From assembly GCA_964016885.1 (NCBI GenBank), contig OZ024741.1:278256001-278320000 (forward strand): a stretch of 64,000 bases of DNA, written 5' to 3'. This DNA is from Eledone cirrhosa. Lineage: Eukaryota. Shown here in pieces: positions 1,062 through 49,441 of this stretch. The notes under the pieces were generated by a model. That model ran no database searches, was not told where the DNA came from, and saw only the letters and a list, made by a program, of their open reading frames with translations. Each line of letters starts with the position of its first letter. The first letter of the stretch is position 1. The position numbers were made by a program, and so were the translations under genes.

Positions 1062-1952
1062 GTAAGTGCTATTTTTTAACAACAGAATTTCTGCTCACTG
1101 TTTATTCAAAGAAAGGAAAATTCAGTTAATTCATGTGTTTTACTTTTCCATCTCTTTAATCTCAACAATTTTGTTTTTCTTTCTACACCATTTTGTTTCT
1201 TCATTAACACATTCTAGTTTAACTGACAATCTTTCTTTGCTTTCTCAGTTGCTTCATCCTTTTTATTTTGAGTAGGGTTTGTGTCATTAGCTTAATCAAA
1301 TGTTTAAAAGCTATTTTCTCTGCTAAAGCAAGGGTTTGCCAAGCAAACCCTATGAGAGGCTTCATGGTCACCATGGGGTCCTTTTTGAGGTAATATTTTA
1401 CTATTAGATAGATGTCCTTCCTAGTGCCAACCCTTTAGCCACTTCTTACAGTATGCAGGGCAACTGCTGGTCTTCCACAAAGAACCTTGCCCATACTTTG
1501 GGCACACACACACGTCACTACCACTACCAGACACACACACACATTCAAGTTCAAGTGGTGCTTTTTGTCGTGTCACCAACATGACCATTTTACCAAGTGG
1601 ACCTGGTGCTTTTTGATGTGCCCTCAACATGACCACCTTATGTGGGTATGGTGTGGCGTGCGGTGGCCGGGGGCGGGGGGGGGGAGTGCTCGACCGGAAG
1701 GGATCTTTGACCGGAAGGATGCTCGACCGGAAGGGCCAGGAGAGGACCTCTCTCTAGTGGTGACCAGCATACGGTGAGGACGCGTTTTGGGCAGCTCCCG
1801 GTTTTAAGCAGTCGGACGCACGTGGAAGAGGAGTACCTGCAGCGGAATTTAGCGGCGCCTGTGAAAAGCGGTAAGTGAGATAGCTTTTTCTAACCACAAG
1901 CTATTTCGGCGACTGAAAAAAAGAAAACACTTGCCGCAAAACAAATCAGAAG

Positions 1953-2474
1953 ATGGCGACAAGACTACGGATGAACGAAGCTATCAGGCCATTCACCGGG
2001 GAAGGTGATGTTGTCGCTTGGCTGCGGAAGGTTCGGCTGGTCGCAAGCTTGCAGAAGATAGAGGACGTGGCCGGCCTCATGGCATTGTACCTCGAGGGTG
2101 ACGCATTGGTACTCTTCCTTGAGTTGGACGAGCACAGCCAAAGAGATGTGCAGAAGATTGAGAGGCGTCTGATGGATGCATTCGCCGAGGGACCGTTGGC
2201 GGCTTTTGCTAAGCTGGCGAGAATCAGGTGGAATGGTGAGCGCGTCGACATTTTCGCAGCGGAAATAAGGCGGTTGGCTATGTTGGCGGGCTACCAGGCA
2301 GAATGCGAACGCACGGTGCGGTTGGCATTCATCAATGGATTTCCAGACGACATAGCGGTGAAACTGCAGCAAGTCCCGGGGTACAAGGAGATGGAAATGC
2401 GTTCACTGGTGGAACAAGCCCGGATCATAGCGGAAGATGCCAAAAAGAGTGTCGCGGCGATAGCGACTACGTAG
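1953..2474 (+). pseudogene. gag: Gypsy gag with premature TAG; frame continues to a decayed Zn knuckle (CFRRQGPHMSRD)
   Basis: IRPFTGEGDVVAWLRKV...LYLEGDAL capsid-like sequence; in-frame continuation after the stop at 2472-2474. Confidence 0.75.
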
Positions 2475-2599
2475 GCTCAGGACACCTGGCAGCGAAATGG
2501 TCAAAGGGAGGCAACCTCGGCACGCGGCCGTTCGCGAGAATTTAAGGGCCGCTGTTTTAGGCGTCAGGGGCCGCATATGTCAAGAGACGAGCGGGAGGG

Positions 2600-7100: not shown

Positions 7101-7812
7101 ACACTATAGTTGGATATATTGGTATTTTATTTGATATATATACAATATACACTATAGTTGGATATATTGGTATTTCATTTGATATATATACAATATACAC
7201 TATAGTTGGATATATTGGTATTTTATTTGATATATATACAATATACACTATAGTTGGTTATATTGGTATTTTATTTGATATATATACAATATACACTATA
7301 GTTGGATATATTGGTATTTTATTTGATATATATACAATATACACTATAGTTGGATATATTGGTATTTCATTTGATATATATATATATATACACTATAGTT
7401 GGATATATTGGTATTTTATTTGATATATATACAATATACACTATAGTTGGATATATTGGTATTTCATTTGATATATATACAATATACACTATAGTTGGAT
7501 ATATTGGTATTTGATATATATACAATATACACTATAGTTGGTTATATTGGTATTTTATTTGATAGAAATACAATATACACTATAGTTGGATATATTGGTA
7601 TTTTATTTGATATATATACAATATACACTATAGTTGGATATATTGGTATTTCATTTGATATATATACAATATACACTATAGTTGGATATATTGGTATTTT
7701 ATTTGATATATATACAATATACACTATAGTTGGATATATTGGTATTTTATTTGATATATATATATATACACTATAGTTGGGTATGTTGGTATTTTATTTG
7801 ATATATATATAT

Positions 7813-9878
7813 CTCCCCCATGTCGACCCAATAGAGGGACCAGCAGTGTTAGTCGAGGGGAGTATAATAAGTAAGGCAATCAAGGATATGAAGACAGGTA
7901 AGGCGGCTGGGCCTTCGGAAATAGTTGCTGAGATGCTGAAGGCATCTGGCACGGTGGGACACACCATGGTCACCCGCATAGTTAACCAAGTCGTACAGAA
8001 TGGGGCTGTTCCGAAGGACTGGCATAGCAGCATCATCGTTAACTGTTATAAGGGTAAAGGAGACGCCCTAGATAGGAGTAACTATAGAGGCATTAAATTA
8101 ATCGACCAGGTCATGAAGGTCACAGAAAAAGTAATAGCGCAACTAATCAGAGAGAGAATTGACCTAGATGAAATGCAGTTCGGGTTTGTGTCAGGCAAAA
8201 GTACCACAGACGCTCTTTTCATAGTACGACAACTACAGGAGAAGTACCTAGCTAAAGGTAAACCCCTCTACTTAGCTTTTGTCGACTTGGAGAAAGCCTT
8301 CGACAGAGTCCCCCGCTCCATTATCTGGTGGGCTCTTAGAAAACTAGGCGTTGACGAATGGCTTGTGAGGGCTATACAAGCCATGTATAAAGAAACAGTC
8401 AGCAAGGTTAGAATTAACAACGAATATAGTGAAGAGTTTAGCGTAAAAGTTGGCGTCCATCAGGGCTCTGTTCTCAGCCCCCTACTATTTATTATTGCCC
8501 TTCAGGCTATAACAGAGGAGTTCAAGACAGGCTGCCCATGGGAACTCCTATACGCAGACGACCTGACACTCATAGCGGAATCAATGGCCGAGCTAGAGAA
8601 GAAATTCCAAACATGGAAGCACGGCCTAGAGTCAAAAGGACTTAAAATTAACCTGGCTAAGACCAAAGTTCTAGTTTGTAGGAAAGAAAACAAGGCGGCG
8701 GTCCCTTCTGGGAAATGGTCGTGCTCGGTGTGTAGGAAAGGCGTAGGTAGAAACTCCATTTTGTGTCCTAAATGCAAAGTATGGGTGCATAAAAGATGTA
8801 GTGGGATCACAGGTAAGCTAACTAAGAACATAGATTTTACATGTGGCCGGTGTTCTGGTGCAATAAGTAGCAGCAAGTGCCCACACAATACTAGCTCTTT
8901 CAATTGCGCAGAGGGTTCTATAGAAATAGTGGACAGCTTCCGTTACCTGGGCGATAAAATCAGCAGTGGGGGAGGGTGCTCTGAAAGTACTGTAGCTAGA
9001 GTCAGAACTGGTTGGAAAAAGTTCAGAGAGCTTATACCACTATTAGCTGCTAAAGGGTTCTCCCTAAAAATGAAAGGCAGGTTGTACGATGCCTGCATAC
9101 GAACAGCAATGTTGCATGGCAGTGAGACCTGGGCATTGTGTGCAGAGGATATACGCAGACTAGAGAGGAACGAAGCTTGCATGCTCCGCTGGATGTGTAA
9201 CAGTAATATACGTGAACGGCAAAGCATAAACGAACTAAGGAAAAAATTAGAGATAAGAGGGATCAGATGTTGTTTACTCGAGAGAAGGCTACGTTGGTTT
9301 GGACACGTGATGCGCATGAAAGTCGATAGCTGTATAACAAAGTGCAGGGCAATAAAGATAGACGGTAGCCACGGAATAGGCAGACCTAGAAAAACCTGGG
9401 ACGAGCTGATAAACTCCGACCTCACACACTTACACCTCTCCAAGACAATGTCACTGGACCGAGACCTTTGGCGGTACTCAGTAACAGAGAAGACCCGCCT
9501 TGCCAGTAGGCATCTCTAACAAAATACACCCCGTCCCACCACCACCACCCCCACCCCATCCACACCACCCCGTCCTATGTAAAGTTATGTTGGTGCCGCG
9601 CCATCCGGGCCGAAACAAATGAGATCGTGTAGGTGTCACGACAAAAAAACACACAGTCCACGCTGTAATGTGGCCGTGTAGGCAACACGGTAAAAACCTC
9701 CCAGACCCACACTGTAAATGTGGTTGGTGTTAGGAAGGGCATCCAACTGTAGAAAACCTGCCAGACAGTCCTATGCGAGCAAGACAATCACTCTTGCCTC
9801 AAGTGGGACTACCCCCGTCCAAACCCATGCAAGCGTGGAACACGGACGTTAAACGTTGATGATGATGATGATGATGAT
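7813..9878 (+). mobile_element. 5'-truncated RTE-clade LINE copy A (open RT + PHD frame to 9519, 3' UTR, (GAT)n tail)
   Basis: RT motifs FVDLEKAFD, GVHQGSVLSP, YADD; C-terminal LHGSETW/RRLRWFGHV/GRPRKTW; tail gatgatgat joins satellite atatacactatag. Confidence 0.93.
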
Positions 9879-11343
9879 ATATACACTATAGTTGGGTATA
9901 TTGGTATTTGATATATATACAATATACACTATAGTGGGGTATATTGGTATTTTATTTGATATATATATATATACACTATAGTTGGGTATATTGGTATTTG
10001 ATACATATACAATATACACTATAGTTGGGTATATTGGTATTTTATTTGATATATATACAATATACACTATAGTTGGATATATTGGTATTTTATTTGATAT
10101 ATATACAATATACACTATAGTTGGGTATATTGGTATTTTATTTGATAGATATACAATATACACTATAGTTGGATATATTGGTATTTTATTTGATATTTAT
10201 ACAATATACACTATAGTTGGATATATTGGTATTTTATTTGATATATATACAATATACACTATAGTTGGATATATTGGTATTTTATTTGATATATATACAT
10301 ATACACTATAGTTGGATATATTGGTATTTTATTTGATATATATACATATACACTATAGTTGGATATATTGGTATTTTATTTGATATATATATATATATAT
10401 ACACTATAGTTGGATATATTGGTATTTTATTTGATATATATACAATATACACTATAGTTGGGTCTGTTGGTATTTTATTTGATATATATACAATATACAC
10501 TATAGTTGGTTATATTGGTATTTCATGTGATATATATACAATATACACTATAGTTGGGTATATTGGTATTTTATTTGATATATATACAATATACACTATA
10601 GTTGGTTATATTGGTATTTCATGTGATATATATACAATATACACTATAGTTGGGTATATTGGTATTTTATTTGATATATATATACAATATACACTATAGT
10701 TGGGTATATTGGTATTTTATTTGATATATATACAATATACACTATAGTTGGGTATATTGGTATTTTATTTGATATATATATATATACACTATAGTTGAGT
10801 ATATTGGTATTTTATTTGATATATATACAATATACACTATAGTTGGGTATATTGGTATTTTATTTGATATATATACAATATACACTATAGTTGGGTATAT
10901 TGGTATTTCATTTGATATATATATATATACACTATAGTTGAGTATATTGGTATTTCATTTGATATATATACAATATACACTATAGTTGGGTATATTGGTA
11001 TTTTATTTGATATATATACAATATACACTATAGTTGGTTATATTGGTATTTCATGTGATATATATACAATATACACTATAGTTGGGTATATTGGTATTTT
11101 ATTTGATATATATACAATATACACTATAGTTGGGTATATTGGTATTTCATTTGATATATATATATATACACTATAGTTGAGTATATTGGTATTTCATTTG
11201 ATATATATACAATATACACTATAGTTGGGTATATTGGTATTTTATTTGATATATATACAATATACACTATAGTGGGATATATTGGTATTTGATATATATA
11301 CAATATACACTATAGTTGGGTATATTGGTATTTTATTTGATAT

Positions 11344-14325
11344 CTGTAACACTAACTTCAAAAAACGAGACAATCACTTGATCACCTATAGATCGGGGGA
11401 ACACACAAGCCAGGTAGATTATATCCTTACCAGAAGACGTGACAGAGTGTCTGTTGTTAACACTAAATCCCACCCCCATGAAGAATTCACCTCCCAACAT
11501 AGATTGATAATTAGCGACCTCATAGTCAGGACGAGACGTACTAGACAGCGAAAGAGGACTATCCTCAGGAGAAAAATATGGAAGCTAAAGGACCCCATAG
11601 CCAGAAATAAATTTCAAAGCAAATTACTTGACGCTTTCGACAGTAAGGAAGAGCAATTAGAGTCGTATAATATAGAGGAACAGTGGGAATTCCTGAGAGC
11701 AAACCTGCTGACGGCGGCAGACGAAGTCTGTGGCTGGAGCAGGCCTGTAGGTAGGAGGAGAGTAACATGGTGGTGGAACAGTAAGGTGGAGGAGTCAATT
11801 AAGGCCAAAAAGCAGGCTTGGAAAGTATGGCGGGATGGGGGAAGTAGAGAAGACTATCAAGTGGCCAGGAGGGAAGCTAGGAGACAAGTGTACTTCGCAA
11901 GAAGGGAAGCAGAGGAAAGAAAGTTCAAGCATGTTCTACAACGTGAGGACCAAAAACGTGAGGTGTTCAGGATTGCCAGGCAATGTGTCAAGGAAAACCG
12001 TGATATTGTCGGGGAGAAGTGTGTACTTAACGATGATGGCATACTTGCCATCACCGACGCTGATAAGAAGGTAGCTTGGAAGTGTCACTACGAAAGGCTT
12101 CTAAATGAGGAGAACAAATGGGAGAAAGACAGTCTCCCCCAGATCGATCCAATAGAGGGACCAGCAGTGTTAGTTGAAGGTAGTATAATAAGTAAGGCAA
12201 TCAAAGATATGAAGACGGGTAAGGCGGCTGGGCCTTCGGAAATAGTTGCTGAGATGCTGAAGGCATCTGGTTCGGTGGGACACACCATGGTCACCCGGAT
12301 AGTTAACCAAGTCGTACAGAATGGGGTTGTTCCGAAGGAATGGCGTAGCAGCATCATCGTTAACTGCTATAAGGGAAAAGGAGATGCCCTAGATAGGAGT
12401 AACTATAGAGGCATTAAATTAATCGACCAGGTCATGAAGGTCACGGAAAAAGTAATAGCGCAACTAATCAGAGAGAGAATTGATCTAGATGAAATGCAGT
12501 TCGGGTTTGTGTCAGGCAAAAGTACCACAGACGCTCTTTTCATTGTACGACAACTACAGGAGAAGTACCTAGCTAAAAGTAAACCCCTATACTTAGCTTT
12601 TGTCGACTTGGAGAAAGCCTTCGACAGAGTCCCCCGTTCCATTATCTGGTGGTCTCTTAGAAAACTAGGTGTTGACGAATGGCTTGTGAGAGCTATACAA
12701 GCCATGTATAAAGAAACAGTCAGTAAGGTTAGAATTAACAACGAATATAGTGAAGAGTTTAGCGTAAAAGTTGGTGTCCATCAGGGCTCTGTACTTAGCC
12801 CCCTACTATTTATTATTGCCCTTCAGGCTATAACAGAGGAGTTCAAGACCGGCTGCCCATGGGAACTCCTATACGCAGATGATCTAACGCTCATAGCTGA
12901 ATCAATGACCGAACTAGAGAAGAAATTCCAAACGTGGAAGCACGGCCTAGAATCAAAAGGCCTTAAAATTAACCTGGCTAAGACTAAAGTTCTAGTTTGT
13001 AGGAAAGAAAATAAGGCGGCGGTCCCATCGGGGAAATGGCCATGCTCAGTGTGTAGGAAAGGCGTAGGTAGAAACTCCATTTTATGTCCCAAATGCAAAG
13101 TATGGGTGCATAAAAGATGTAGTGGGATCACAGGTAAGCTAACTAAGAACATAGATTTTACATGTGGCCGGTGCTCTGGTGCAATAAGTAGCAGCAAGTG
13201 CCCACAAAATACTAGCTCCTTCAACTGCGCAGAGGGTTCTATAGAAATAGTGGACAGCTTCCGTTATCTGGGTGACAAAATCAGCAGTGGGGGAGGGTGC
13301 TCTGAAAGTACAGTAGCTAGAGTCAGAACTGGATGGAAAAAGTTCAGAGAGCTTATACCACTATTAGCCGCTAGAGGGTTCTCCCTAAAAATGAAAGGCA
13401 GGTTATACGATGCCTGCATACGAACAGCAATGCTGCATGGCAGTGAGACCTGGGCATTGTGTGCAGAGGATATACGCAGACTAGAGAGGAACGAAGCTTG
13501 CATGCTCCGCTGGATGTGCAATAGTAATATACGTGAACGGCAAAGCATAAACGAACTAAGGAAAAAATTAGAAATAAGAGGGATCAGATGTTGTTTACTC
13601 GAGAGAAGGCTACGTTGGTACGGTCACGTGATGCGCATGAAAGACGACAGCTGTATAACAAAGTGCAGGGCAATAAAGATAGACGGTAGCCACGGAGTAG
13701 GCAGACCCAGAAAAACATGGGACGAGCTGATAAATTCCGACCTCACACGCTTACACCTCTCCAAGACAATGTCACTGGACCGAGACCTTTGGCGGTACTC
13801 AGTAATAGAGAAGACCCGCCTTACCTAAATACAAAGTAAAAACCTACTACAGTCAGTAGGCACCTCTATCAAAACACACCCCCGTCCCACCACCTCCACC
13901 CCACCCACACCGCCCCTTTCAATGTAAAGTTATGTTGGTCCCACAACATCCAGGCCGAAACAAATGAGATCGTGTAGGTGTCACGACAAAAAACACACAG
14001 TCCACGCTGTAAATGTGGCCGTGTAGGCAACACGGTAAAAACCTCCCAGCCCCACACTGTAAATGTGGTTGGTGTTAGGAAGGGCATCCAGCTGTAGAAA
14101 ACCCGCCAGACAGTCCACGCTGTAATGTGGTCGTGTAGGCAACACGGTAAAAACCTCCCAGCCCCACACTGTAAATGTGGTTGGTGTTAGGAAGGGCATC
14201 CAACTGTAGAAAACCCGCCAGACAGTCCTATGCGAGCAAGACAACCACTCTTGCCTCAAGTGGGAAAACCCCCGTCCAAACCCATGCAAGCGTGGAACAC
14301 GGACGCTAAACCTGATGATGATGAT
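11344..14325 (+). mobile_element. 5'-truncated RTE LINE copy B (end of APE + RT + PHD, open frame to 13828)
   Basis: APE C-terminus TYRSG..SQVDYIL..SQHRL; RT YADD; C4HC3 finger; 113-bp duplication in 3' UTR; (GAT)n tail. Confidence 0.95.
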
Positions 14326-15438
14326 ATATACAATATACACTATAGTTGGGTATATTGGTATTTGATATATATACAATATACACTATAGTTGGGTATATTG
14401 GTATTTTATTTGATATATATACAATATACACTATAGTTGGATATATTGGTATTTTATTTGATATATATACAATATACACTATAGTTGGGTATATTGGTAT
14501 TTTATTTGATATATATATATATACACTATAGTTGGATATATTGGTATTTTATTTGATATATATACAATATACACTATAGTTGGATATATTGGTATTTTAT
14601 TTGATATATATACAATATACACTATAGTTGGATATAGTGGTATTTTATTTGATATATATATATATATACACTATAGTTGGATATATTGGTATTTTATTTG
14701 ATATATATACAATATACACTATAGTTGGATATATTGGTATTTTATTTGATATATATACAATATACACTATAGTTGGATATAGTGGTATTTTATTTGATAT
14801 ATATATATATATACACTATAGTTGGATATATTGGTATTTTATTTGATATATATACAATATACACTATAGTTGGGTATATTGGTATTTTATTTGATATATA
14901 TACAATATACACTATAGTTGGGTATATTGGTATTTCATTTGATATATATACAATATACACTATAGTTGGATATATTGGTATTTTATTTGATATATATACA
15001 ATATACACTATAGTTGGTTATATTGGTATTTTATTTGATATTTATACAATATACACTATAGTTGGATATAGTGGTATTTTATTTGATATATATATATATA
15101 TACACTATAGTTGGATATATTGGTATTTTATTTGATATATATACAATATACACTATAGTTGGATATATTGGTATTTTATTTGATATTTATTCAATATACA
15201 CTATAGTTGGATATAGTGGTATTTTATTTGATATATATACAATATACACTATAGTGGGGTATATTGGTATTTTATTTGATATATATATATATATACACTA
15301 TAGTTGGGTATATTGGTATTTTATTTGATATATATACAATGTACACTATAGTTGGATATATTGGTATTTTATTTGATATATATATATACACTATAGTTGG
15401 GTATATTGGTATTTTATTTGATATATATATATATATAC

Positions 15439-16985
15439 AAGTGTAGATGAATAGCTTGTGAGAGCTATACAAGTCATGTATAAAGAAACAGTTAACAACG
15501 AATATAGTGAAGAATTTAGTGTAAAAGTTGGTGTTCATCAAGGCTCTGTCCTTAGCCCCCTCCTATTTATTATTGCCCTTCAGGCTATAACAGAGGAGTT
15601 TAAGACTGGCTGCCCATGGGAACTTCTATACACAGATGATCTAACTCTCATAGCTGAATCTATGGCTGAACTAGAGAAGAAATTCCAAACATGGAAACAT
15701 GGCCTAGAATCAAAAGGCCTTAAAATTAACTTGTCTAAGACTAAAGTTCTAGTATGTAGAAAGGAAAATAGGGCACAGGTGCCCTCTGGGAAATGGCCAT
15801 GCTCAGTGTGTAGGAAAGGAGTAGGCAGAAATTCCATTTTATGTCCCAAATGCAAAGTATGGGTGCATAAAAGATGTAGTGGGATCACAGGTAAGCTATC
15901 TAAGAATGTAGATTTTATATGTGGCTGATACTCAGGTGCAATAAGTAACACGTGCCCACAGGATACTAGCTCCTTCTATTGCCCAGATGGCTCTATAGAA
16001 ATAGTGGACACTTTCCGTTACCTGGATGACAAAATGAGCAATGGTGGAGGGTGCTCTGAAAGTACAGTAGCCAGAGTCAGAACAGGATGGAAAAAGTTCA
16101 GAGAGCTTATACTGCTGTTGGCCACAAAAGGTTTCTTTCTAAAAATGAAAGGCAGATTGTATGATGCCTGTATACAAACAGCAATGTTACATGGCAGTGA
16201 GATATGGGCATTGTGTGCAGAGGATCTGTGCAGACTGGAGAAGAATGAAGCTTGCATGCTCCGCTGGATGTGTAATAGTAATATACACGAACGGCAAAAC
16301 ATAAATGAACTAAGTGAGAAATTAGGAATAAGAAGGATCAGATGCTGTTTACTCGAGAGAAGACTACGTTGGTATGGTCACGTGATGCGCATGAAAGACG
16401 ACAGCTGTATAAAAAAGTGCAGGGCGATGAAAATTGATGGAAGTTACAGAGTAGGTAGATCCAGAAAAACCTGGGACGATTTGATAAATTCCGACCTTGC
16501 ACACTTGCACCTCTCTAAGACAATGTCACTGGACCGAGACCTTTGGCGCCATGCAGTAATACAGAAGACCCGCCTTGCCTATGTACAAAGCGAAACCTAC
16601 AGTCAGTAGGCACCTCTTAACCAAATATACACCCCAATCCACTACCCCTACCCTATCCTCCCACTCCCACCAACACCACCCTTTCTCTGTAAAATTATGT
16701 TGGTACCACAACATCCAGTCCTAAATAAATGAGGTCGTGTAGGTGTTACGACAAAAAAACACAGTCCAAGCTGTAGTGTAGCCGTGTAGGTAACATGGTA
16801 AAAACCTCCCAGTCCACACTGTAAATGTGGTTGGTGTTAGGAAGGGCATCCAGCCGTAGAAAACCTGCCAGACAGTCCTATATGAGCAAGACACGGTCAC
16901 CCGATCAATCTTGCCTCAAGTGGGACAATTCCCGTCTAAACCCATGCTAGCATGGAAAATAGACGTTAAACGATGATGATAATGA
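15439..16985 (+). mobile_element. Older decayed RTE LINE copy C (stops, YTDD, small deletion)
   Basis: ORF pieces 15458-15928 and 16004-16609 homologous to copy B; TGG>TAG near the 5' junction; gatgatgataatga tail. Confidence 0.92.
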
Positions 16986-18170
16986 ATATACACTATAGTT
17001 GGTTATATTGCTATTTTATTTGATATATATACAATATACACTATAGTTGGGTATACTTGTATTTTATTTGATATATATACAGTATACACTATAGTTGGAT
17101 ATATTGGTATTTTATTTGATATATATACAATATACACTATAGTTGGATATATTGGTATTTTATTTGATATATATACATATACACTATAGTTGGATATATT
17201 GGTATTTTATTTGATATATATATATATACACTATAGTTGGATATATTGGTATTTTATTTGATATATATACAATATACACTATAGTTGGGTATGTTGGTAT
17301 TTTATTTGATATATATACAATATACACTATAGTTGGTTATATTGGTATTTCATGTGATATATATACAATATACACTATAGTTGGGTATATTGGTATTTTA
17401 TTTGATATATATACAATATACACTATAGTTGGTTATATTGGTATTTCATGTGATATATATACAATATACACTATAGTTGGGTATATTGGTATTTTATTTG
17501 ATATATATATACAATATACACTATAGTTGGGTATATTGGTATTTTATTTGATATATATACAATATACACTATAGTTGGGTATATTGGTATTTTATTTGAT
17601 ATATATATATATACACTATAGTTGAGTATATTGGTATTTTATTTGATATATATACAATATACACTATAGTTGGGTATATTGGTATTTTATTTGATATATA
17701 TACAATATACACTATAGTTTGGTATATTGGTATTTCATTTGATATATATATATATACACTATAGTTGAGTATATTGGTATTTCATTTGATATATATACAA
17801 TATACACTATAGTTGGGTATATTGGTATTTTATTTGATATATATACAATATACACTATAGTTGGTTATATTGGTATTTCATGTGATATATATACAATATA
17901 CACTATAGTTGGGTATATTGGTATTTTATTTGATATATATACAATATACACTATAGTTGGGTATATTGGTATTTCATTTGATATATATATATATACACTA
18001 TAGTTGAGTATATTGGTATTTCATTTGATATATATACAATATACACTATAGTTGGGTATATTGGTATTTTATTTGATATATATACAATATACACTATAGT
18101 GGGATATATTGGTATTTGATATATATACAATATACACTATAGTTGGGTATATTGGTATTTTATTTGATAT

Positions 18171-21152
18171 CTGTAACACTAACTTCAAAAAACGAGACAA
18201 TCACTTGATCACCTATAGATCGGGGGAACACACAAGCCAGGTAGATTATATCCTTACCAGAAGACGTGACAGAGTGTCTGTTGTTAACACTAAATCCCAC
18301 CCCCATGAAGAATTCACCTCCCAACATAGATTGATAATTAGCGACCTCATAGTCAGGACGAGACGTACTAGACAGCGAAAGAGGACTATCCTCAGGAGAA
18401 AAATATGGAAGCTAAAGGACCCCATAGCCAGAAATAAATTTCAAAGCAAATTACTTGACGCTTTCGACAGTAAGGAAGAGCAATTAGAGTCGTATAATAT
18501 AGAGGAACAGTGGGAATTCCTGAGAGCAAACCTGCTGACGGCGGCAGACGAAGTCTGTGGCTGGAGCAGGCCTGTAGGTAGGAGGAGAGTAACATGGTGG
18601 TGGAACAGTAAGGTGGAGGAGTCAATTAAGGCCAAAAAGCAGGCTTGGAAAGTATGGCGGGATGGGGGAAGTAGAGAAGACTATCAAGTGGCCAGGAGGG
18701 AAGCTAGGAGACAAGTGTACTTCGCAAGAAGGGAAGCAGAGGAAAGAAAGTTCAAGCATGTTCTACAACGTGAGGACCAAAAACGTGAGGTGTTCAGGAT
18801 TGCCAGGCAATGTGTCAAGGAAAACCGTGATATTGTCGGGGAGAAGTGTGTACTTAACGATGATGGCATACTTGCCATCACCGACGCTGATAAGAAGGTA
18901 GCTTGGAAGTGTCACTACGAAAGGCTTCTAAATGAGGAGAACAAATGGGAGAAAGACAGTCTCCCCCAGATCGATCCAATAGAGGGACCAGCAGTGTTAG
19001 TTGAAGGTAGTATAATAAGTAAGGCAATCAAAGATATGAAGACGGGTAAGGCGGCTGGGCCTTCGGAAATAGTTGCTGAGATGCTGAAGGCATCTGGTTC
19101 GGTGGGACACACCATGGTCACCCGGATAGTTAACCAAGTCGTACAGAATGGGGTTGTTCCGAAGGAATGGCGTAGCAGCATCATCGTTAACTGCTATAAG
19201 GGAAAAGGAGATGCCCTAGATAGGAGTAACTATAGAGGCATTAAATTAATCGACCAGGTCATGAAGGTCACGGAAAAAGTAATAGCGCAACTAATCAGAG
19301 AGAGAATTGATCTAGATGAAATGCAGTTCGGGTTTGTGTCAGGCAAAAGTACCACAGACGCTCTTTTCATTGTACGACAACTACAGGAGAAGTACCTAGC
19401 TAAAAGTAAACCCCTATACTTAGCTTTTGTCGACTTGGAGAAAGCCTTCGACAGAGTCCCCCGTTCCATTATCTGGTGGTCTCTTAGAAAACTAGGTGTT
19501 GACGAATGGCTTGTGAGAGCTATACAAGCCATGTATAAAGAAACAGTCAGTAAGGTTAGAATTAACAACGAATATAGTGAAGAGTTTAGCGTAAAAGTTG
19601 GTGTCCATCAGGGCTCTGTACTTAGCCCCCTACTATTTATTATTGCCCTTCAGGCTATAACAGAGGAGTTCAAGACCGGCTGCCCATGGGAACTCCTATA
19701 CGCAGATGATCTAACGCTCATAGCTGAATCAATGACCGAACTAGAGAAGAAATTCCAAACGTGGAAGCACGGCCTAGAATCAAAAGGCCTTAAAATTAAC
19801 CTGGCTAAGACTAAAGTTCTAGTTTGTAGGAAAGAAAATAAGGCGGCGGTCCCATCGGGGAAATGGCCATGCTCAGTGTGTAGGAAAGGCGTAGGTAGAA
19901 ACTCCATTTTATGTCCCAAATGCAAAGTATGGGTGCATAAAAGATGTAGTGGGATCACAGGTAAGCTAACTAAGAACATAGATTTTACATGTGGCCGGTG
20001 CTCTGGTGCAATAAGTAGCAGCAAGTGCCCACAAAATACTAGCTCCTTCAACTGCGCAGAGGGTTCTATAGAAATAGTGGACAGCTTCCGTTATCTGGGT
20101 GACAAAATCAGCAGTGGGGGAGGGTGCTCTGAAAGTACAGTAGCTAGAGTCAGAACTGGATGGAAAAAGTTCAGAGAGCTTATACCACTATTAGCCGCTA
20201 GAGGGTTCTCCCTAAAAATGAAAGGCAGGTTATACGATGCCTGCATACGAACAGCAATGCTGCATGGCAGTGAGACCTGGGCATTGTGTGCAGAGGATAT
20301 ACGCAGACTAGAGAGGAACGAAGCTTGCATGCTCCGCTGGATGTGCAATAGTAATATACGTGAACGGCAAAGCATAAACGAACTAAGGAAAAAATTAGAA
20401 ATAAGAGGGATCAGATGTTGTTTACTCGAGAGAAGGCTACGTTGGTACGGTCACGTGATGCGCATGAAAGACGACAGCTGTATAACAAAGTGCAGGGCAA
20501 TAAAGATAGACGGTAGCCACGGAGTAGGCAGACCCAGAAAAACATGGGACGAGCTGATAAATTCCGACCTCACACGCTTACACCTCTCCAAGACAATGTC
20601 ACTGGACCGAGACCTTTGGCGGTACTCAGTAATAGAGAAGACCCGCCTTACCTAAATACAAAGTAAAAACCTACTACAGTCAGTAGGCACCTCTATCAAA
20701 ACACACCCCCGTCCCACCACCTCCACCCCACCCACACCGCCCCTTTCAATGTAAAGTTATGTTGGTCCCACAACATCCAGGCCGAAACAAATGAGATCGT
20801 GTAGGTGTCACGACAAAAAACACACAGTCCACGCTGTAAATGTGGCCGTGTAGGCAACACGGTAAAAACCTCCCAGCCCCACACTGCAAATGTGGTTGGT
20901 GTTAGGAAGGGCATCCAGCTGTAGAAAACCCGCCAGACAGTCCACGCTGTAATGTGGTCGTGTAGGCAACACGGTAAAAACCTCCCAGCCCCACACTGTA
21001 AATGTGGTTGGTGTTAGGAAGGGCATCCAACTGTAGAAAACCCGCCAGACAGTCCTATGCGAGCAAGACAACCACTCTTGCCTCAAGTGGGAAAACCCCC
21101 GTCCAAACCCATGCAAGCGTGGAACACGGACGCTAAACCTGATGATGATGAT
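18171..21152 (+). mobile_element. RTE LINE copy B' (duplicate of 11344-14325)
   Basis: Identical 848-aa ORF at offset 6827; same junctions; one visible T>C at 20887. Confidence 0.95.
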
Positions 21153-22360
21153 ATATACAATATACACTATAGTTGGGTATATTGGTATTTGATATATATA
21201 CAATATACACTATAGTTGGGTATATTGGTATTTTATTTGATATATATACAATATACACTATAGTTGGATATATTGGTATTTTATTTGATATATATACAAT
21301 ATACACTATAGTTGGGTATATTGGTATTTTATTTGATATATATATATATACACTATAGTTGGATATATTGGTATTTTATTTGATATATATACAATATACA
21401 CTATAGTTGGATATATTGGTATTTTATTTGATATATATACAATATACACTATAGTTGGATATAGTGGTATTTTATTTGATATATATATATATATACACTA
21501 TAGTTGGATATATTGGTATTTTATTTGATATATATACAATATACACTATAGTTGGATATATTGGTATTTTATTTGATATATATACAATATACACTATAGT
21601 TGGATATAGTGGTATTTTATTTGATATATATATATATATACACTATAGTTGGATATATTGGTATTTTATTTGATATATATACAATATACACTATAGTTGG
21701 GTATATTGGTATTTTATTTGATATATATACAATATACACTATAGTTGGGTATATTGGTATTTCATTTGATATATATACAATATACACTATAGTTGGATAT
21801 ATTGGTATTTTATTTGATATATATACAATATACACTATAGTTGGTTATATTGGTATTTTATTTGATATTTATACAATATACACTATAGTTGGATATAGTG
21901 GTATTTTATTTGATATATATATATATATACACTATAGTTGGATATATTGGTATTTTATTTGATATATATACAATATACACTATAGTTGGATATAGTGGTA
22001 TTTTATTTGATATATATATATATATACACTATAGTTGGATATATTGGTATTTTATTTGATATATATACAATATACACTATAGTTGGATATATTGGTATTT
22101 TATTTGATATTTATTCAATATACACTATAGTTGGATATAGTGGTATTTTATTTGATATATATACAATATACACTATAGTGGGGTATATTGGTATTTTATT
22201 TGATATATATATATATACACTATAGTTGGGTATATTGGTATTTTATTTGATATATATACAATGTACACTATAGTTGGATATATTGGTATTTTATTTGATA
22301 TATATATATACACTATAGTTGGGTATATTGGTATTTTATTTGATATATATATATATATAC

Positions 22361-23907
22361 AAGTGTAGATGAATAGCTTGTGAGAGCTATACAAGTCATG
22401 TATAAAGAAACAGTTAACAACGAATATAGTGAAGAATTTAGTGTAAAAGTTGGTGTTCATCAAGGCTCTGTCCTTAGCCCCCTCCTATTTATTATTGCCC
22501 TTCAGGCTATAACAGAGGAGTTTAAGACTGGCTGCCCATGGGAACTTCTATACACAGATGATCTAACTCTCATAGCTGAATCTATGGCTGAACTAGAGAA
22601 GAAATTCCAAACATGGAAACATGGCCTAGAATCAAAAGGCCTTAAAATTAACTTGTCTAAGACTAAAGTTCTAGTATGTAGAAAGGAAAATAGGGCACAG
22701 GTGCCCTCTGGGAAATGGCCATGCTCAGTGTGTAGGAAAGGAGTAGGCAGAAATTCCATTTTATGTCCCAAATGCAAAGTATGGGTGCATAAAAGATGTA
22801 GTGGGATCACAGGTAAGCTATCTAAGAATGTAGATTTTATATGTGGCTGATACTCAGGTGCAATAAGTAACACGTGCCCACAGGATACTAGCTCCTTCTA
22901 TTGCCCAGATGGCTCTATAGAAATAGTGGACACTTTCCGTTACCTGGATGACAAAATGAGCAATGGTGGAGGGTGCTCTGAAAGTACAGTAGCCAGAGTC
23001 AGAACAGGATGGAAAAAGTTCAGAGAGCTTATACTGCTGTTGGCCACAAAAGGTTTCTTTCTAAAAATGAAAGGCAGATTGTATGATGCCTGTATACAAA
23101 CAGCAATGTTACATGGCAGTGAGATATGGGCATTGTGTGCAGAGGATCTGTGCAGACTGGAGAAGAATGAAGCTTGCATGCTCCGCTGGATGTGTAATAG
23201 TAATATACACGAACGGCAAAACATAAATGAACTAAGTGAGAAATTAGGAATAAGAAGGATCAGATGCTGTTTACTCGAGAGAAGACTACGTTGGTATGGT
23301 CACGTGATGCGCATGAAAGACGACAGCTGTATAAAAAAGTGCAGGGCGATGAAAATTGATGGAAGTTACAGAGTAGGTAGATCCAGAAAAACCTGGGACG
23401 ATTTGATAAATTCCGACCTTGCACACTTGCACCTCTCTAAGACAATGTCACTGGACCGAGACCTTTGGCGCCATGCAGTAATACAGAAGACCCGCCTTGC
23501 CTATGTACAAAGCGAAACCTACAGTCAGTAGGCACCTCTTAACCAAATATACACCCCAATCCACTACCCCTACCCTATCCTCCCACTCCCACCAACACCA
23601 CCCTTTCTCTGTAAAATTATGTTGGTACCACAACATCCAGTCCTAAATAAATGAGGTCGTGTAGGTGTTACGACAAAAAAACACAGTCCAAGCTGTAGTG
23701 TAGCCGTGTAGGTAACATGGTAAAAACCTCCCAGTCCACACTGTAAATGTGGTTGGTGTTAGGAAGGGCATCCAGCCGTAGAAAACCTGCCAGACAGTCC
23801 TATATGAGCAAGACACGGTCACCCGATCAATCTTGCCTCAAGTGGGACAATTCCCGTCTAAACCCATGCTAGCATGGAAAATAGACGTTAAACGATGATG
23901 ATAATGA
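22361..23907 (+). mobile_element. RTE LINE copy C' (duplicate of 15439-16985)
   Basis: Identical ORF pieces at offset 6922 and same junctions. Confidence 0.92.
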
Positions 23908-24095
23908 ATATACACTATAGTTGGTTATATTGCTATTTTATTTGATATATATACAATATACACTATAGTTGGGTATACTTGTATTTTATTTGATATATAT
24001 ACAGTATACACTACAGTTGGATATATTGGTATTTGATATATATACAATATACACTATAGTTGGATATATTGGTATTTTATTTGATATATATACAA

Positions 24096-24499
24096 TCTTT
24101 ATATATATAAAAGCGAGGATGTGTGTGTCTGTGTACAACTTTGCATGCATAAGGCTTTCACAATTACCAACTGAATTTGACCAAATTTTCTGTGCACGTT
24201 GCACAGGTCGCTACGATTGTCATATCACAAACATTTTTCAAATTGACCCACGTTGAGCAATAAAAAATCGATATCAAAATTATCGGTAGAAAAAATTGAT
24301 GTAAGGGAGATAACAAACTTTATTGACAATCCTTATAAAAAAGGGAGATAACCTTTTCACCAAATATAGTTTGTATTAATTATTGAAGACTTCTGCTTAT
24401 TTTGACAGGTTGGGGACAAATAATGTTCTTCTTTTACTTCCTAGCTGTATATTCTTAGCATAATTTCAAACCCCGAGCAACGCCGGGTAAATCTGCTAG
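24096..24499 (+). mobile_element. Non-autonomous Helitron 1 (404 bp)
   Basis: 5' TC, 3' CTAG; subterminal hairpin ccccgagcaacgccggg (24471-24487); inserted between A|T of satellite tacaa|tatacac with no TSD. Confidence 0.88.
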
Positions 24500-25413
24500 T
24501 ATACACTATAGTTGGGTATATTGGTATTTTATTTGATATATATACAATATACACTATAGTTGGATATAGTGGTATTTTATTTGATATATATATATACAAT
24601 ATACACTATAGTTGGGTATATTGGTATTTTATTTGATATTGGTATTTTATTGGTATTTTATTGGTATTTTATTTGATATTGGTATTTTATTTGATATATA
24701 TACAATAGACACTATAGTTGGATATATTGGTATTTGATAAATATACAATATACACTATAGTTGGATATATTGGTATTTTATTTGATATATATACAATATA
24801 CACTATAGTTGGATATATTGGTATTTTATTTGATATATATACAATATACACTATAGTTGGATATATTGGTATTTTATTTGATATTTATACAATATACACT
24901 ATAGTTGGTTATATTGGTATTTTATTTGATATTTATACAATATACACTATAGTTGGATATATTGGTATTTTATTTGATATATATACAATATACACTATAG
25001 TTGGGTATATTGGTATTTCATTTGATATATATACAATATACACTATAGTTGGTTATATTGGTATTTTATTTGATATTTATACAATATACACTATAGTTGG
25101 TTATATTGGTATTTTATTTGATATTTATACAATATACACTATAGTTGGATATATTGGTATTTTATTTGATACATATACAATATACACTATAGTTGGTTAT
25201 ATTGGTATTTTATTTGATATTTATACAATATACACTATAGTTGGATATATTGGTATTTTATTTGATACATATACAATATACACTATAGTTGGTTATATTG
25301 GTATTTTATTTGATATTTATACAATATACACTATAGTTGGGTATATTGGTATTTTATTTGATATATATACAATATACACTATAGTGGGGTATATTGGTAT
25401 TTTATTTGATATA

Positions 25414-26693
25414 TCATAATCTATAAAGCTCAGTGTGTGGTCATGCTCCTTTCTTATAGAAATCTACGATATAGAATTTCTTCAATTGAAATTTACAATT
25501 CAGTATTCGAAATAGTTTCGATTGCATCTTGGCACATCTCATTTTTTCAATTTCCCCCACAATTACGCAAAAAATAGATAAAACTCAATATTTTACGATT
25601 TTTCTCTGTCATTTAAACTGCTAAACTCTTTCCACTACCATTCAAAATCTATACAACTTCATACTTTCTGCTACTTTCTCTTTCCAAGCTTGATGGTGAT
25701 ACTGTCCGTTTTACTCTGTCATATCATCTGCTTCCCTCTATCTACAACCCACACATTTTGCTACTTTCTCTTTTATACTTCAAATTATTACATTTCATAC
25801 GAAACGACAATTATTCAAAAGCAACAGATACATTTATTCAACAACAAGCGATAAATCTTTTTTAAAACCTCTTTTCCAAACGCATACAAACACACACTCA
25901 CTTCAACAACAACAATCTGACTTTTATAGATAATGATAAACAATAATATCCTCTATGAGGTCACTAAACCTGCTATAAACAGCAGCTAACTCTCCCCCAT
26001 ACCACACCCCTCCCTAATGTCTTAAATTTAGAAAACATATCTTCTATGAGGTCACCAAACCTGCTAGAAACAGCAGCTAACTCTCCCCCAAATCACACCA
26101 CTCCCTACTGTCTTAAATTTAGGAAACACATATCCTCTATGAGGTTACTAAACCTGCTAGAAACAGCAGCTAACTCTCCCCCATATCACACCCATCCCTA
26201 CTGTCTTAAATTTAGAAAACATATCTTCTATGAGGTCACTAAACCTGCTAGAAACAGCAGCTAACTCTCCTCCATATCACACCACTCCCTACTGTCTTAA
26301 ATTTAGACAACACATATCCTCTATGAGGTCACTAAACCTGCTAGAAACAACAGCTAACTCTCCCTCATATCACAACCCTCCCTACTGTCTTAAATTTAGA
26401 AAACACACAGACAACCATGCAGAACAACTCCATCGCAGCTCTGTTGTTCGGCTGGCATCGTCTACGCGCGTGTTGCGCAAGTACTGTGAAACAATAAATT
26501 TCAACACTTTTTTGCACAGAGATAATATCCATAGGCGAAACTACAATTGTCACTGTTGGCGCAGCTCATGCTTCCAGGTCTGCAATTCATTCACCCAGTG
26601 CCTGGCAGACAAAAAAGTGCTGCCATAAAATGGGTGGTGCAACCTAACTTTGGAAACTTAATGACCCCGAGCAACGCCGGGCTTTAATGCTAG
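25414..26693 (+). mobile_element. Non-autonomous Helitron 2 (1280 bp) with internal ~94-bp tandem repeats
   Basis: 5' TC (tcataatctataaag); same hairpin ccccgagcaacgccggg (26665-26681); CTAG end; A|T target in (TA)n. Confidence 0.85.
25946..26405 (+). repeat. 5 tandem ~94-bp units inside Helitron 2
   Basis: ctatgaggtcactaaacctgctagaaacagcagctaactctccc...ctactgtcttaaatttagaaaac repeated. Confidence 0.9.
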
Positions 26694-26699
26694 TATATA

Positions 26700-27083
26700 A
26701 TATGGCTTAGTGGTTAGAGCATTGGCCTTGCAATGGAAAGGTTGTGAGTACAATTCTCAGACCGGGTGATGTGTTGTTTCCTTGAGCAAGACACTTTATT
26801 TCACATTGCTCCAGTTTACTCAGCTGTAGAAATGAAATGATAGGGACTGGGGTCCATGTCATTCCATTGTAGAGTGGTCGTGGAGGTGCCACGGCAAAAA
26901 AGCACCCAGCCCACACTGTAAAGTGGACGTGTAGGCGCCACGGAAAAAAAGCACCCAGCACTCACTATAAATGAGGTTGGTGTTAGGAAGGGCATCTTGT
27001 AGAAATCAAGCCAGAATCAGTTCCTGTCCCACCCTTGCAAGCAGGGAAAAGTGGACGTAAAATGAAATGATGAATGATGATGA
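26700..27083 (+). mobile_element. tRNA-derived SINE with an RTE-like 3' tail, inserted in the satellite
   Basis: A-box-like tggcttagtgg; core ccttgagcaagacacttta; tail ggttggtgttaggaagggcatc...ggacgtaaaatga(tga)n shared with the LINE 3' UTR. Confidence 0.75.
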
Positions 27084-27994
27084 CACTATAGTTGGGTATA
27101 TTGGTATTTCATTTGATATATATATATATACACTATAGTTGGGTATATTGGTATTTTATTTGATATATATACAATATACACTATAGTTGGATATATTGGT
27201 ATTTTATTTGATATATATACAATATACACTATAGTTGGATATATTGGTATTTTATTTGATATATATACAATATACACTATAGTTGGATATATTGGTATTT
27301 TATTTGATATATATACAATATACACTATAGTTGGATATATTGGTATTTTATTTGATATATATACAATATACACTATAGTTGGATATATTGGTATTTTATT
27401 TGATATATATACAATATACACTATAGTTGGATATATTGGTATTTTATTTGATATATATACAATATACACTATAGTTGGATATATTGGTATTTTATTTGAT
27501 ATATATACAATATACACTATAGTTGGATATATTGGTATTTTATTTGATATATATACAATATACACTATAGTTGGATATATTGGTATTTTATTTGATATAT
27601 ATACAATATACACTATAGTTGGATATATTGGTATTTTATTTGATATATATACAATATACACTATAGTTGGATATATTGGTATTTTATTTGATATATATAC
27701 AATATACACTATAGTTGGATATAGTGGTATTTTATTTGATATATATATACAATATACACTATAGTTGGATATATTGGTATTTTATTTGATATATATATAC
27801 AATATACACTATAGTTGGGTATATTGGTATTTTATTTGATATATATACAATATACACTATAGTTGGGTATATTGGTATTTTATTTGATATATATACAATA
27901 TACATTCTAGTGGGATATATTGGTATTTTATTTGATATATATACAATATACACTATAGTGGGATATATTGGTATTTTATTTGATATATATATAC

Positions 27995-28235
27995 AGGTGT
28001 AGATGAATAGCTTGTGAGAGCTATATATAAAGAAACAGTCAGCAAGGTTAGAATTAATAATGAATATAGTGAAGAATTTAGCGTAAAAGTTGGTGTTCAT
28101 CAAGGCTCTGTCCTTAGCCCCCTCCTATTTATTATTGCCCTTCAGGCTATAACAGAGGAGTTTAAGACTGGCTGCCCATGGGAACTTCTATACGCAGATG
28201 ATCTAACTCTCATAGCTGAATCTATGGCTGAACTA
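27995..28235 (+). mobile_element. RTE LINE fragment C'' (same 5' junction as copy C; 3' part deleted)
   Basis: tatatac-aggtgtagatgaatagcttgtg shares the junction and TAG with C/C'; YADD retained. Confidence 0.85.
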
Positions 28236-28507
28236 TGTACACTATAGTTGGTTATTGGAATTTTATTTGTTGTACACTATTCTTTCTCAGATTGGATTCC
28301 TCCTGTCCGTAACGATCCTCCTTAATTCCTCCTTTGGTTTTCTTTACCTAGGAGCCAAGTGCCACCCTGTTTAGGAACTGATATTTTCTAGAATCATTTT
28401 GTATAATTAGAATGAGATTACGTCCAATGTTTGTGACAAGACGGTAAACCAGACTATAATGATGATGATGATGATGATGATGATCATGAGAACCACATCT
28501 CTTTCAG

Positions 28508-28720
28508 GTTGAAAATTCGTGGAAGAAAATTGAATTTATTGTTTTACCATATAAAGATTATGCCGACACATATATACTGGGAGGAACTGATGACATCCAA
28601 CAAACTCTTGATGACAGTATAATTAACATTTCTACCATAGCAAGTTCACGCTTTGTTGGTCCCATCAAAGCCCGTGTAGAAGAATGGCAAGTTGATTTGG
28701 AACTTGTTGGAAAGACTTTG
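28508..28720 (+). CDS. DNAH6: Dynein heavy chain exon (VENSWKKIEF...ILGGTDDIQQTLDDS...VGKTL)
   Basis: ttcag/gtgagt; 213 nt, phase 0; ILGGTDDIQ..LDDS..STIASSRFVGPIK typical of DNAH6. Confidence 0.9.
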
Positions 28721-29307
28721 GTGAGTTTCTCTTAAAGCATCATTTTTTACTGTATTTTTAATGAAATTTATTTTGAGAAGAATACTTTAACATCAGTATG
28801 AGCAGCCAGTTACAGTCAGTTTGAACAGAAAGAGGTGAGAGAATTCTGATCGGATACGGCCTATTTAAATGCTAAAGGGTTAAATAGGAACACTGTTTCA
28901 ATTAAGGAAAAAAGAATTTTGAGGAATTTACTAAAATTATTTATTATTTCATTACTAAAATAATACCATATGGTTCTTAAAACCCAAAAGTTGGATCTTG
29001 GGTGGTGGACTTCATCCATTACTTGGTTCAATACCACTACCACCTGACTCTTAGGTACCGCTAACAGAATTCACTCTTTGTTGAAAGCATTCAGGCCAGG
29101 TCTAATTAATGAAGAATTTTGATGGGTTTACTAAAATTATTAGTTATTTCATTACTAAGATAGTAACTTAATGTAAGGTTCTTATGTAAAATTATGTTGG
29201 AAGATTTGAATTTAAATAGGAACCCTTTAAAGTGGATGATTTTGGTTCATAGAACCAGAACTGGTTTTGGCCAAGTTGATATCAAAAGGGCTAAATTTCT
29301 TCTCTTT

Positions 29308-49184: not shown

Positions 49185-49441
49185 TATATATATGTATATA
49201 TATATGTAAGTATATATATGTATATATATATGTATATATATATGTATATATACATGTATGTATATTTGTATATTTATATATATATATGTATATATGTATG
49301 TATATATGTATATGCATCTATAGATATATACATATGTCTATATATCTATGTGTATATATATGTATATATATATATATATATGTGTATGTATATATGTTTA
49401 TATATGTATATATGTATATATATATGTATATATATATATAT
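49147..49441. repeat. (TA)n/(TATG)n microsatellite
   Basis: Direct sequence; produces the spurious N-terminus of ORF 49218-50369. Confidence 0.9.

Follow-up and report, generated by a model that had tools for sequence, protein, structure and literature searches.

An array of a 48-bp repeat in Eledone cirrhosa contains three LINE copies (A, B, and C) that are independent insertions of an abundant, dispersed RTE-type family. The family's endonuclease probably cuts at short T^AT(R)T steps wherever they occur in the genome, and the 48-bp repeat is dense in such steps. The pile-up in the repeat is likely due to a lax preference for short AT runs, not to homing. This reading, which we regard as probable, is based on the independence of the copies, the dispersal of the family, junctions that start with AT, (AT)n tracts that preexisted in 5' flanks, no excess of insertions in other arrays, and insertions in both orientations. 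Throughout, the window denotes the whole stretch of DNA analyzed (64,000 nucleotides; contig OZ024741.1, positions 278,256,001 to 278,320,000).

Organization of the array

All features listed here lie on the + strand of the window. The 48-bp repeat is an internal repeat, here expanded, that belongs to an old dispersed MITE lying in a dynein heavy chain gene. The left end of this MITE-like host (4900..5022), which has a degenerate terminal repeat at ~4900, aligns with the left ends of three dispersed loci (L042, L054, and L048), and its right end, together with the last degenerate repeat units (28236..28381), matches the right ends of L042, L049, and others. Terminal inverted repeats and flanks shared at dispersed loci characterize the host, with clear left ends in 5 and clear right ends in ~8 of 14 other loci. 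We take its ends to be hAT-like; no 8-bp target site duplication (TSD) was seen by eye in L042, L045, and L049, copies that are 70 to 80% alike. A dynein exon (28490..28732; match to DHC_N2 148-221) and an upstream one (DHC_N2 31-80), ~2.3 kb before the window, flank the array and thus place it inside the gene, to which all four tail-bearing insertions in the window (A, B, C, and a SINE) are in sense orientation; host transcription is one conceivable source of a strand bias. A central array in a dispersed element with terminal inverted repeats is also described, in the available part of the source, for DTC84 of the clam Donax (PMC3879986), but the arrays here reach 15 kb.

Repeat blocks, delimited by TRF and a unit map, alternate with inserted elements. 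Block S1 (5023..7812; ~58 units) precedes copy A (7813..9878), followed by S2 (9879..11343), copy B (11344..14325), S3 (14326..15439), and copy C (15440..16985). Block S4 (16986..18170) begins with units resembling those after C' and ends, according to the unit strings, with the 17 units preceding B; it is likely the crossover point of a 6.8-kb tandem duplication. From this duplication stem B' (18171..21152; 1 difference from B in 2,982 bp) and C' (22362..23907; 0 differences from C in 1,547 bp), separated by S5 (21153..22361), which the unit map identifies as a duplicate of S3 plus two extra units. Beyond S6 (23908..24095) lie a Helitron-like nonautonomous element (24096..24499), S7 (24500..25413), a second Helitron-like element with internal 91- to 93-bp repeats (25414..26693), the SINE (26704..27083), S8 (27084..27994), and a tail-less fragment, D (27995..28235), which by sequence comparison has a 5' junction in common with C and is likely what remains of an earlier duplication of C. 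The SINE has a (GAT)n tail and a 3' end ~80% like the LINE 3' UTR, and we take its head to resemble a tRNA. An earlier note on this DNA, made from its letters alone, had not separated B', C', D, the two Helitron-like elements, and this tRNA-type SINE within the array.

Both Helitron-like elements begin with TC, end with CTAG, and are inserted between A and T without a TSD, the second just 5' of the SINE. Their subterminal hairpins fold no better than shuffled sequences (z of -1.0 and -0.7), and the first element has a relative in another array (L045). The array would have grown by unequal crossover that doubled a stretch of B, repeat, C, and repeat, with D left from an older event; the Helitrons, inserting between A and T, would have used the same AT tract as the LINEs.

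Family identity and abundance

The LINE family appears to be RTE-type on the basis of its ORF layout, missing ORF1 and RNase H, and tail. One dispersed copy (L077) carries a stop-free frame of 1,029 aa with PF03372 (APE endonuclease) followed by PF00078 (RT); a PHD finger follows the RT core, and the 3' UTR is ~480 bp long. No long ORF1 was found (in copy L085, the longest + ORF that lies entirely 5' of the main one is 103 aa), and a domain search of the L077-type ORF gave no match to RNase H. The tails, of 9 to 35 nt, are tandem (GAT)n repeats rather than poly(A) in 83/83 sampled junctions. The best named endonuclease match is an Octopus bimaculoides protein (60% identical); the named matches are labeled "craniofacial development protein 2-like," proteins that are presumably of RTE/Bov-B origin, and a PDB search returned only distant L1 and R2 proteins. 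Sequence pattern counts gave 18,077 exact and 54,345 looser 3' ends in the 3.0-Gb genome, equal on both strands. Like this family, the octopus elements covered in the available part of PMC9115989 are recently active RTE-type LINEs of an octopod-like genome; compared by description, the O. vulgaris RTE element differs in its C2H2 finger and in the microsatellite that directly follows its ORF.

Independence of copies A, B, and C

As the earlier note had read them, A, B, and C all belong to one family and are 5'-truncated; each lies between blocks of the 48-bp repeat and has a (GAT)n tail running into the AT-rich part of the unit. Their truncation points differ, the three beginning at positions 790, 1, and 1326 of B, respectively; B itself is truncated within the endonuclease and has a 112-bp duplication inside its 3' UTR. 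The frames of A (RT and PHD finger) and B are open and differ by 60 synonymous and 17 nonsynonymous changes over 563 codons (dN/dS of 0.07, i.e., mostly silent), and C is decayed, with 2 stops in the shared frame. Among copies dN/dS is 0.07 to 0.15, and the divergence therefore arose under selection in source elements. In a tree of 66 rows, a few of which are one locus fetched twice, A (young subfamily 1), B (young subfamily 2), and C (an older subfamily) fall into three groups, each with different dispersed copies: A is 0.002 changes/site from L113, and B is 0.001 changes/site from L070 and L072.

The claim of independent insertions is thus upheld, each copy being closer to dispersed copies than to the other two. 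We give practically no credence to the reading in which a single insertion, by rearrangement, gave rise to A, B, and C, or in which they are an assembly artifact. B', C', and D are indeed such products, and an assembly join between two haplotypes could account for the 6.8-kb duplication, but for A, B, and C the tree and the dN/dS range rule out a one-insertion origin.

No long TSD is visible, in line with the earlier description: relative to the commonest unit, B has 0 to 2 bp and C has 0 to 1 bp, and the TSD of A amounts to a few bases at most, how many being set by the (AT)n length of the unit that it entered. The further claim of insertion at the same site did not hold, as the junctions are spread over ~13 bp within the AT-rich section of the unit. 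With the G of tttG as 0, the 3' junction starts at A3 or A5 for B, at A11-A12 for C, and at A16 for the SINE; that of A falls inside a longer (AT)n variant of the unit. The C and SINE junctions, at C^AAT/A^AT and T^AC steps, are off the best motif. Elsewhere in the window, as already reported, the tail of the copy at 52048 runs into (TA)n, the 5' end of the copy at 54910 lies at (TA)n, and the copy at 46060 has no such tract at its 3' end.

Dispersal rather than satellite homing

Of the proposal that the family homes to the satellite or to (TA)n, the second half stands and the first does not. Junctions are far from random genome-wide, with 17,362/54,345 3' ends (32%, versus 1.6% of background positions) running into (AT)4. 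The core motif of the 48-bp repeat follows only 6 of ~54,000 ends, 5 of them in this window; >99.9% of the ends lie outside the repeat, as do all of the sampled junctions (0/83 inside). The enrichment expected of a homing family was absent from other arrays of the repeat, where 5 tails were found in 39.3 kb versus 5.6 expected; the detector missed four + tails seen by eye (L042 and L046), which raises the count to no more than 9 versus 5.6, in which case the background is an undercount as well. Symmetric 15-mer patterns recovered only 2 forward and 2 reverse sites and missed A to C because neighboring units are variants; pattern counts for the 48-bp repeat are therefore lower bounds. The present array holds 4 tail-bearing insertions in ~7.4 kb of unduplicated repeat versus ~1.1 expected from the density of that tail count (Poisson P of ~0.02), for an array that was picked for its insertions.

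Insertion in the repeat is not confined to one strand: three reverse-oriented insertions were found, one of them 98.6% identical to A. Orientations are 8 + versus 3 - outside the window (two-sided P of ~0.23, not significant) and 12 versus 3 with the window included. This lean is partly chance and may be helped by a T-run that precedes the AT tract on the + strand only.

Tx1-clade and Dong/R4 elements are repeat-specific and tied to one target. Sequence-specific homing of the present family to the 48-bp repeat in the manner of R1, Tx1, or R4 elements is highly improbable: four same-strand, tail-bearing insertions over a long time span in one array favor it, but the genome-wide counts, the sampled junctions, and the other arrays refute it at the family level. 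The closest relatives of A and B also lie in unrelated flanks, the sites vary in position and orientation, and the 66-row tree contains no sublineage confined to the repeat. Copies are not mostly at one target, and neither the base nor the orientation is fixed. According to the available part of PMC3812793, the R1-clade element Waldo likewise occurs in simple repeats and in phase within a tandem array; such elements are bound to one target, whereas here nearly all ends lie elsewhere, at variable bases and strands.

Genome-wide insertion motif

All sampled junctions lie on one chromosome, within its first 9 Mb; of 90 places there, 7 were duplicate entries and 83 were kept, 19 of them in an unrelated 18-bp satellite. 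Among the other 64, the 5' end was out of view in 7, and 10 were unresolved, inverted, nested, or next to N, which left 47 (48 in the T-run count). Seventy-six of the 83 junctions begin with AT, and in 68 the fourth position is T; since letters 1 and 2 overlap with the tail, positions 3 and 4 carry the weight. Readable TSDs of 5 to 17 bp begin with AT or A, that is, at a T^A step. The TAT density of the 48-bp repeat is 3.5 times the background on either strand.

The fraction of 3' ends running into (AT)4 is in line with a motif of 3 to 5 bp, the expectation being 27% when every T^AT can serve as a site and 51% when the site is T^ATRT. In the 5' flanks, (AT)4 occurs within 20 bp in 36/47 resolved cases (77%) versus 8% in the background, which comprised only 0.16 to 0.24 Mb; the expectation is 46% under T^AT (P = 3e-5) and 75% under T^ATRT (P = 0.87). 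An origin of (AT)n from tail slippage after insertion alone is rejected, since the 5' flanks have (AT)4 too. Many AT tracts have been struck twice, tail to tail.

The 18-bp satellite has an equal same-site, same-strand look. One of its strands carries 46 tails, all at one base, and the other carries 17, a skew close to the ratio of TAT sites (391:103), and all 46 forward insertions are at T^ATRT. As a driver, long microhomology between tail and target (the earlier note mentions that microhomology can prime TPRT) is rejected by this satellite, in which the strand with the TGAT match was used at the match in 0/17 cases.

Proposed mechanism and alternatives

The APE endonuclease would cut the bottom strand opposite a T^A step, and the freed 3' end would pair through 1 to 3 bases with the (GAU)n RNA tail and prime reverse transcription. 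The duplication left by a second-strand cut would be short and variable, and inside a repeat it would be difficult to make out. Every unit of a tandem repeat presents an identical handful of preferred steps, and any set of insertions is therefore in phase and seemingly site-specific.

This pattern matches the published TA signature of RTE LINEs, whose TSDs, in the available parts of the sources, start at a TA step with a first base that tracks the tail repeat (PMC6007223 and PMC13295347). As described in those parts, RTE LINEs and partner SINEs with the Tn-TA signature (Bov-B, Sauria SINE, and plant RTE/Au) have in common with the present family one ORF with APE and RT, a microsatellite tail, dispersal, a short TSD starting with A after T, a partner SINE sharing the 3' end, and a 1- to 3-base tail overlap. 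The present family differs in a preference that reaches as far as T^AT(R)T and therefore concentrates in (AT)n tracts, and in its PHD finger and 3' UTR. A T-run ~10 bp upstream of the nick fits A, B, L041, and the forward site of the 18-bp satellite but not L139 and L148.

A loose mechanism with true polarity is possible, though we consider it doubtful. The RTE protein would bind a T-run ~10 bp upstream of the nick, as in the published Tn-TA signature, and the 48-bp unit, with a T-run plus TA on the + strand only, would bias both strand and local rate. TTT-N5-8-TAT occurs in the 48-bp repeat at 55.6/kb on the + strand and 0 on the - strand (background, 4.9/kb), B and A lie 8 to 12 bp after T-runs, and the reverse SINE in L041 lies 9 to 11 bp after a TTT from a unit variant on that strand; the overall orientation count also leans this way. 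However, no such T-run accompanies the reverse insertions L139 and L148, dispersed copies give no polarity signal (TTT versus AAA upstream in 8 versus 9 of 48), the skew in the 18-bp satellite needs no T-run, and the orientation count outside the window falls short of significance.

It is unlikely that (AT)n microsatellites are softly targeted as tracts, through DNA shape or chromatin and perhaps the PHD finger, over and above a 3- to 5-bp motif. The excess of (AT)4 in 5' flanks over the bare T^AT expectation and the doubly struck tracts point toward it, but the 5-bp T^ATRT model accounts for the flanks, the 19 junctions in the 18-bp satellite have no (AT)3 at the junction, and AT tracts can also lengthen after insertion. 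The explanation by nicks at short steps, which we prefer, is in itself ordinary, with a modest quantitative twist.

Implications

A loosely specific LINE can look site- and strand-specific in any tandem repeat, which is a trap for calls of satellite targeting from one locus. Tract targeting, if true, would be new for the RTE clade, which is thought to be nonspecific. It is improbable, if conceivable, that this PHD-finger RTE lineage has shifted from a generic T^A nick to real (AT)n-tract targeting with polarity set by an upstream T-run, which would be a first step toward microsatellite specificity and would make it a main agent in the breakup and reuse of AT microsatellites in the present genome. 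With tens of thousands of young copies and with satellites that serve as natural target libraries, the family is a good place to measure the RTE motif and to test the Tn-TA model.

Independent LINE insertions in the 48-bp repeat

Eight blocks of the 48-bp repeat, located between two dynein heavy chain exons, extend from position 5023 to about 28265 of the window, and the inserts between them are all on the + strand. These inserts are three 5'-truncated LINE copies, A (7813-9878), B (11344-14325), and C (15440-16985); local copies of the latter two, B' (18171-21152) and C' (22362-23907); two Helitron-like elements (404 bp, 24096-24499; 1.28 kb, 25414-26693), the second being followed by a SINE (26704-27083); and D, a tail-less fragment (27995-28235). 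The independence of A, B, and C proposed in the earlier note was borne out by their divergences (dS and dN of 0.183 and 0.013 for A versus B, 0.397 and 0.058 for C versus B, and 0.574 and 0.057 for C versus A) and by a tree of LINE copies (66 rows, 1020 columns). The nearest row to A is a dispersed copy at a distance of 0.002, the nearest to B lies at 0.001, and C groups with older copies 0.08-0.09 away. A, B, and C are thus three separate insertions from three subfamilies, two of which are very young.

A single base in 2982 separates B' from B, and none in 1547 separates C' from C. The repeat block between C and B' starts with units resembling those after C' and ends with the 17 units preceding B. 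This unit order fits a recent unequal crossover within the repeat, or possibly an assembly join. Fragment D starts at the 5' junction of C and retains bases missing from C, and thus likely derives from C's insertion.

Repeat loci numbered 203 candidates (40 of them scored), with 295 exact 28-mers of the repeat. The array flanks are 70 to 80% alike between loci and end in inverted repeats; those of the window, near 4900 and 28380, match as well. The repeat is the central, expanded portion of an old MITE-like element. We take the ends of this element to be hAT-like; no target-site duplication (TSD) was found for it. An unrelated second 48-bp repeat, on the - strand (4445-4903 and 44401-44794), is built of 3' untranslated region units from an older LINE relative; the matching period is a coincidence. 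The window also contains an LTR-retrotransposon-like remnant (1917-4144) with a 185-aa gag-like frame (no Pfam match) and a 527-aa frame matching RNase H and integrase, with no RT core seen. A frame at 49422-50369, between (TA)n runs, looks like the GIY-YIG region at the C terminus of a Penelope-like element (no Pfam match at an E value of 0.01).

An RTE-type element with a PHD finger

B codes for an RT (PF00078) and a PHD finger, and near-complete dispersed copies measure about 4.1 to 4.4 kb. One of these loci (L077) has a stop-free frame of 1029 aa with an APE endonuclease, RT, and PHD finger and no RNase H match; no long open reading frame was found 5' of the main one in another (L085). The same layout occurs in 355 relatives (E ≤ 1e-50), of which the best is 52% identical. 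Among named endonuclease matches, the best (60%) comes from Octopus bimaculoides and is called "craniofacial development protein 2-like," a name that we take to mark RTE/Bov-B endonucleases. The family is therefore assigned to RTE by layout and match names. In the LINE protein (window 11344-13825; L077), the PHD finger follows the RT core and precedes the C-terminal portion; many of the 355 relatives also have this finger, which could read chromatin; a literature search on the PHD finger of such LINE proteins found nothing. At two loci (L069 and L110), the 5' end is joined to an inverted LINE piece, as might arise by twin priming or capture of a neighboring element.

Genome-wide distribution of insertions

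With the G of tttG numbered 0, the 3' junction begins at A3 or A5 for B, at A11-A12 for C, and at A16 for the SINE, and that of A lies inside a long (AT)n variant. What had been described as the same site is thus one shared AT-rich stretch, not one base. Measured against the commonest unit, TSDs are 0 to 2 bp for B and 0 to 1 bp for C; readable TSDs at other loci are 5 to 17 bp.

The genome contains 18,077 exact matches to the 26-mer at the 3' end of A and B and 54,345 matches to a looser end-plus-tail pattern, the latter divided equally between the strands. A pattern almost the same as the looser one, but requiring the core 12-mer of the repeat no more than 60 bp further on, matched 6 times, 5 of them in the window; this is a lower bound since diverged units escape. 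The 48-bp repeat was found at 0 of 83 distinct junctions among the matches listed (drawn from the first 100 places, all within the first 9 Mb of one chromosome, C1). In 30 non-window stretches picked for containing or neighboring arrays, the repeat totals 39.3 kb and has 5 adjoining tails versus 5.6 expected from 37 tails in 257.7 kb of other DNA; four further tails seen by eye (L042 and L046) would raise the 5 to 9. Non-window insertions run along the repeat's + strand in 8 cases (two at L042, three at L046, and one each at L044, L054, and L140) and against it in 3 (L041, L139, and L148), with L066 omitted because it was found by a forward-only pattern. The count becomes 12 versus 3 with the window's four, the window itself having been picked for its look. 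The reversed insertion at L139 (also L095) is 98.6% identical to A and lies in the same AT tract of the unit. An array of about 15 kb (L043, L044, and L054) contains only one LINE; array size alone therefore does not draw insertions. Overall, the observation in the earlier note is partly confirmed; of the proposed homing to the satellite and to (TA)n, the satellite part is not supported, and the (AT)n preference stands.

A probable short target motif

The (AT)n preference is real: 17,362 of the 54,345 3' ends (32%) run into (AT)4 versus 1.6% of background positions, and (AT)4 lies within 20 bp of 36 of 47 resolved 5' flanks versus 8%. Tail slippage as the only source of (AT)n is ruled out, since the 5' flanks carry (AT)4 too. 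Use of any T^AT (^, proposed nick) predicts 27% for 3' ends and 46% for 5' flanks, and use of T^ATRT predicts 51% and 75%; the observed 32% and 77% fall inside or at the edge of these expectations, and a short motif accounts for the enrichment. TAT occurs in the 48-bp repeat at 189/kb on the + strand and 182/kb on the - strand, versus 54/kb in the background, so some extra insertions are expected there. Tail-to-tail element pairs over one short AT tract (L019/L020, L024/L025, L029, L078, L100, and L108) indicate that AT tracts adjoining old tails are reused as targets.

Most of the preference is explained by the TA signature already known for the clade, here narrowed to T^AT(R)T. Passages of PMC6007223 and PMC13295347 describe a Tn-TA signature in RTE LINEs and SINEs, link the first TSD base to the tail repeat, and give animal microhomology as one or two bases. 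Elsewhere, parts of the literature call RTE sites not sequence specific, with TSDs of 6 to 12 bp and mention of TGA tails (PMC2887409), class RTE-1 integration as random (PMC13708176), note active RTEs in Octopus in passages that mention no target motif (PMC9115989), and list elements that occur in microsatellites, among them Helitrons and, in TA repeats, MITEs (PMC3812793). A search short on subscription papers, Repbase, and supplements found no report of an (AT)n-preferring cephalopod RTE, a weak sign of novelty.

Behind the directly observed targets, dispersal, phases, and use of both strands, established TPRT would have the APE endonuclease cut at the T^A step and one to three bases pair with the (GAU)n tail, leaving a TSD of short and variable length. 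A run of T some 10 bp upstream, present on the repeat's + strand only (55.6/kb versus 0), could cause the lean toward +. Its placement agrees with A, B, and the SINE that lies reversed at L041, but not with L139 or L148; dispersed flanks showed no TTT excess (8 versus 9 of 48).

Repeated insertion into an unrelated satellite

An unrelated 18-bp satellite on C1 contains 19 of the 83 junctions. Genome-wide, one of its strands carries 46 tails at one base, all T^ATRT, and the other carries 17, of which 16 are at one base (P = 0.0003 for the skew); the ratio is close to the 391:103 split of TAT sites between these strands. Truncation points differ among these insertions, which were thus separate events. 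Long tail microhomology was rejected as the driver: the TGAT match on the minority strand is used by 0 of 17 junctions. Given this 46/17 skew in fixed phases, repeated same-site, same-strand insertion is the behavior of this LINE family in any tandem repeat. A megabase-scale region rich in the 18-bp satellite (C1, about 7.2 to 9.6 Mb; L083-L086, L123-L138, and L151-L158) contains tails in two fixed phases, at least 61 altogether, and offers a ready-made library from which the target motif and the lengths of TSDs could be measured.
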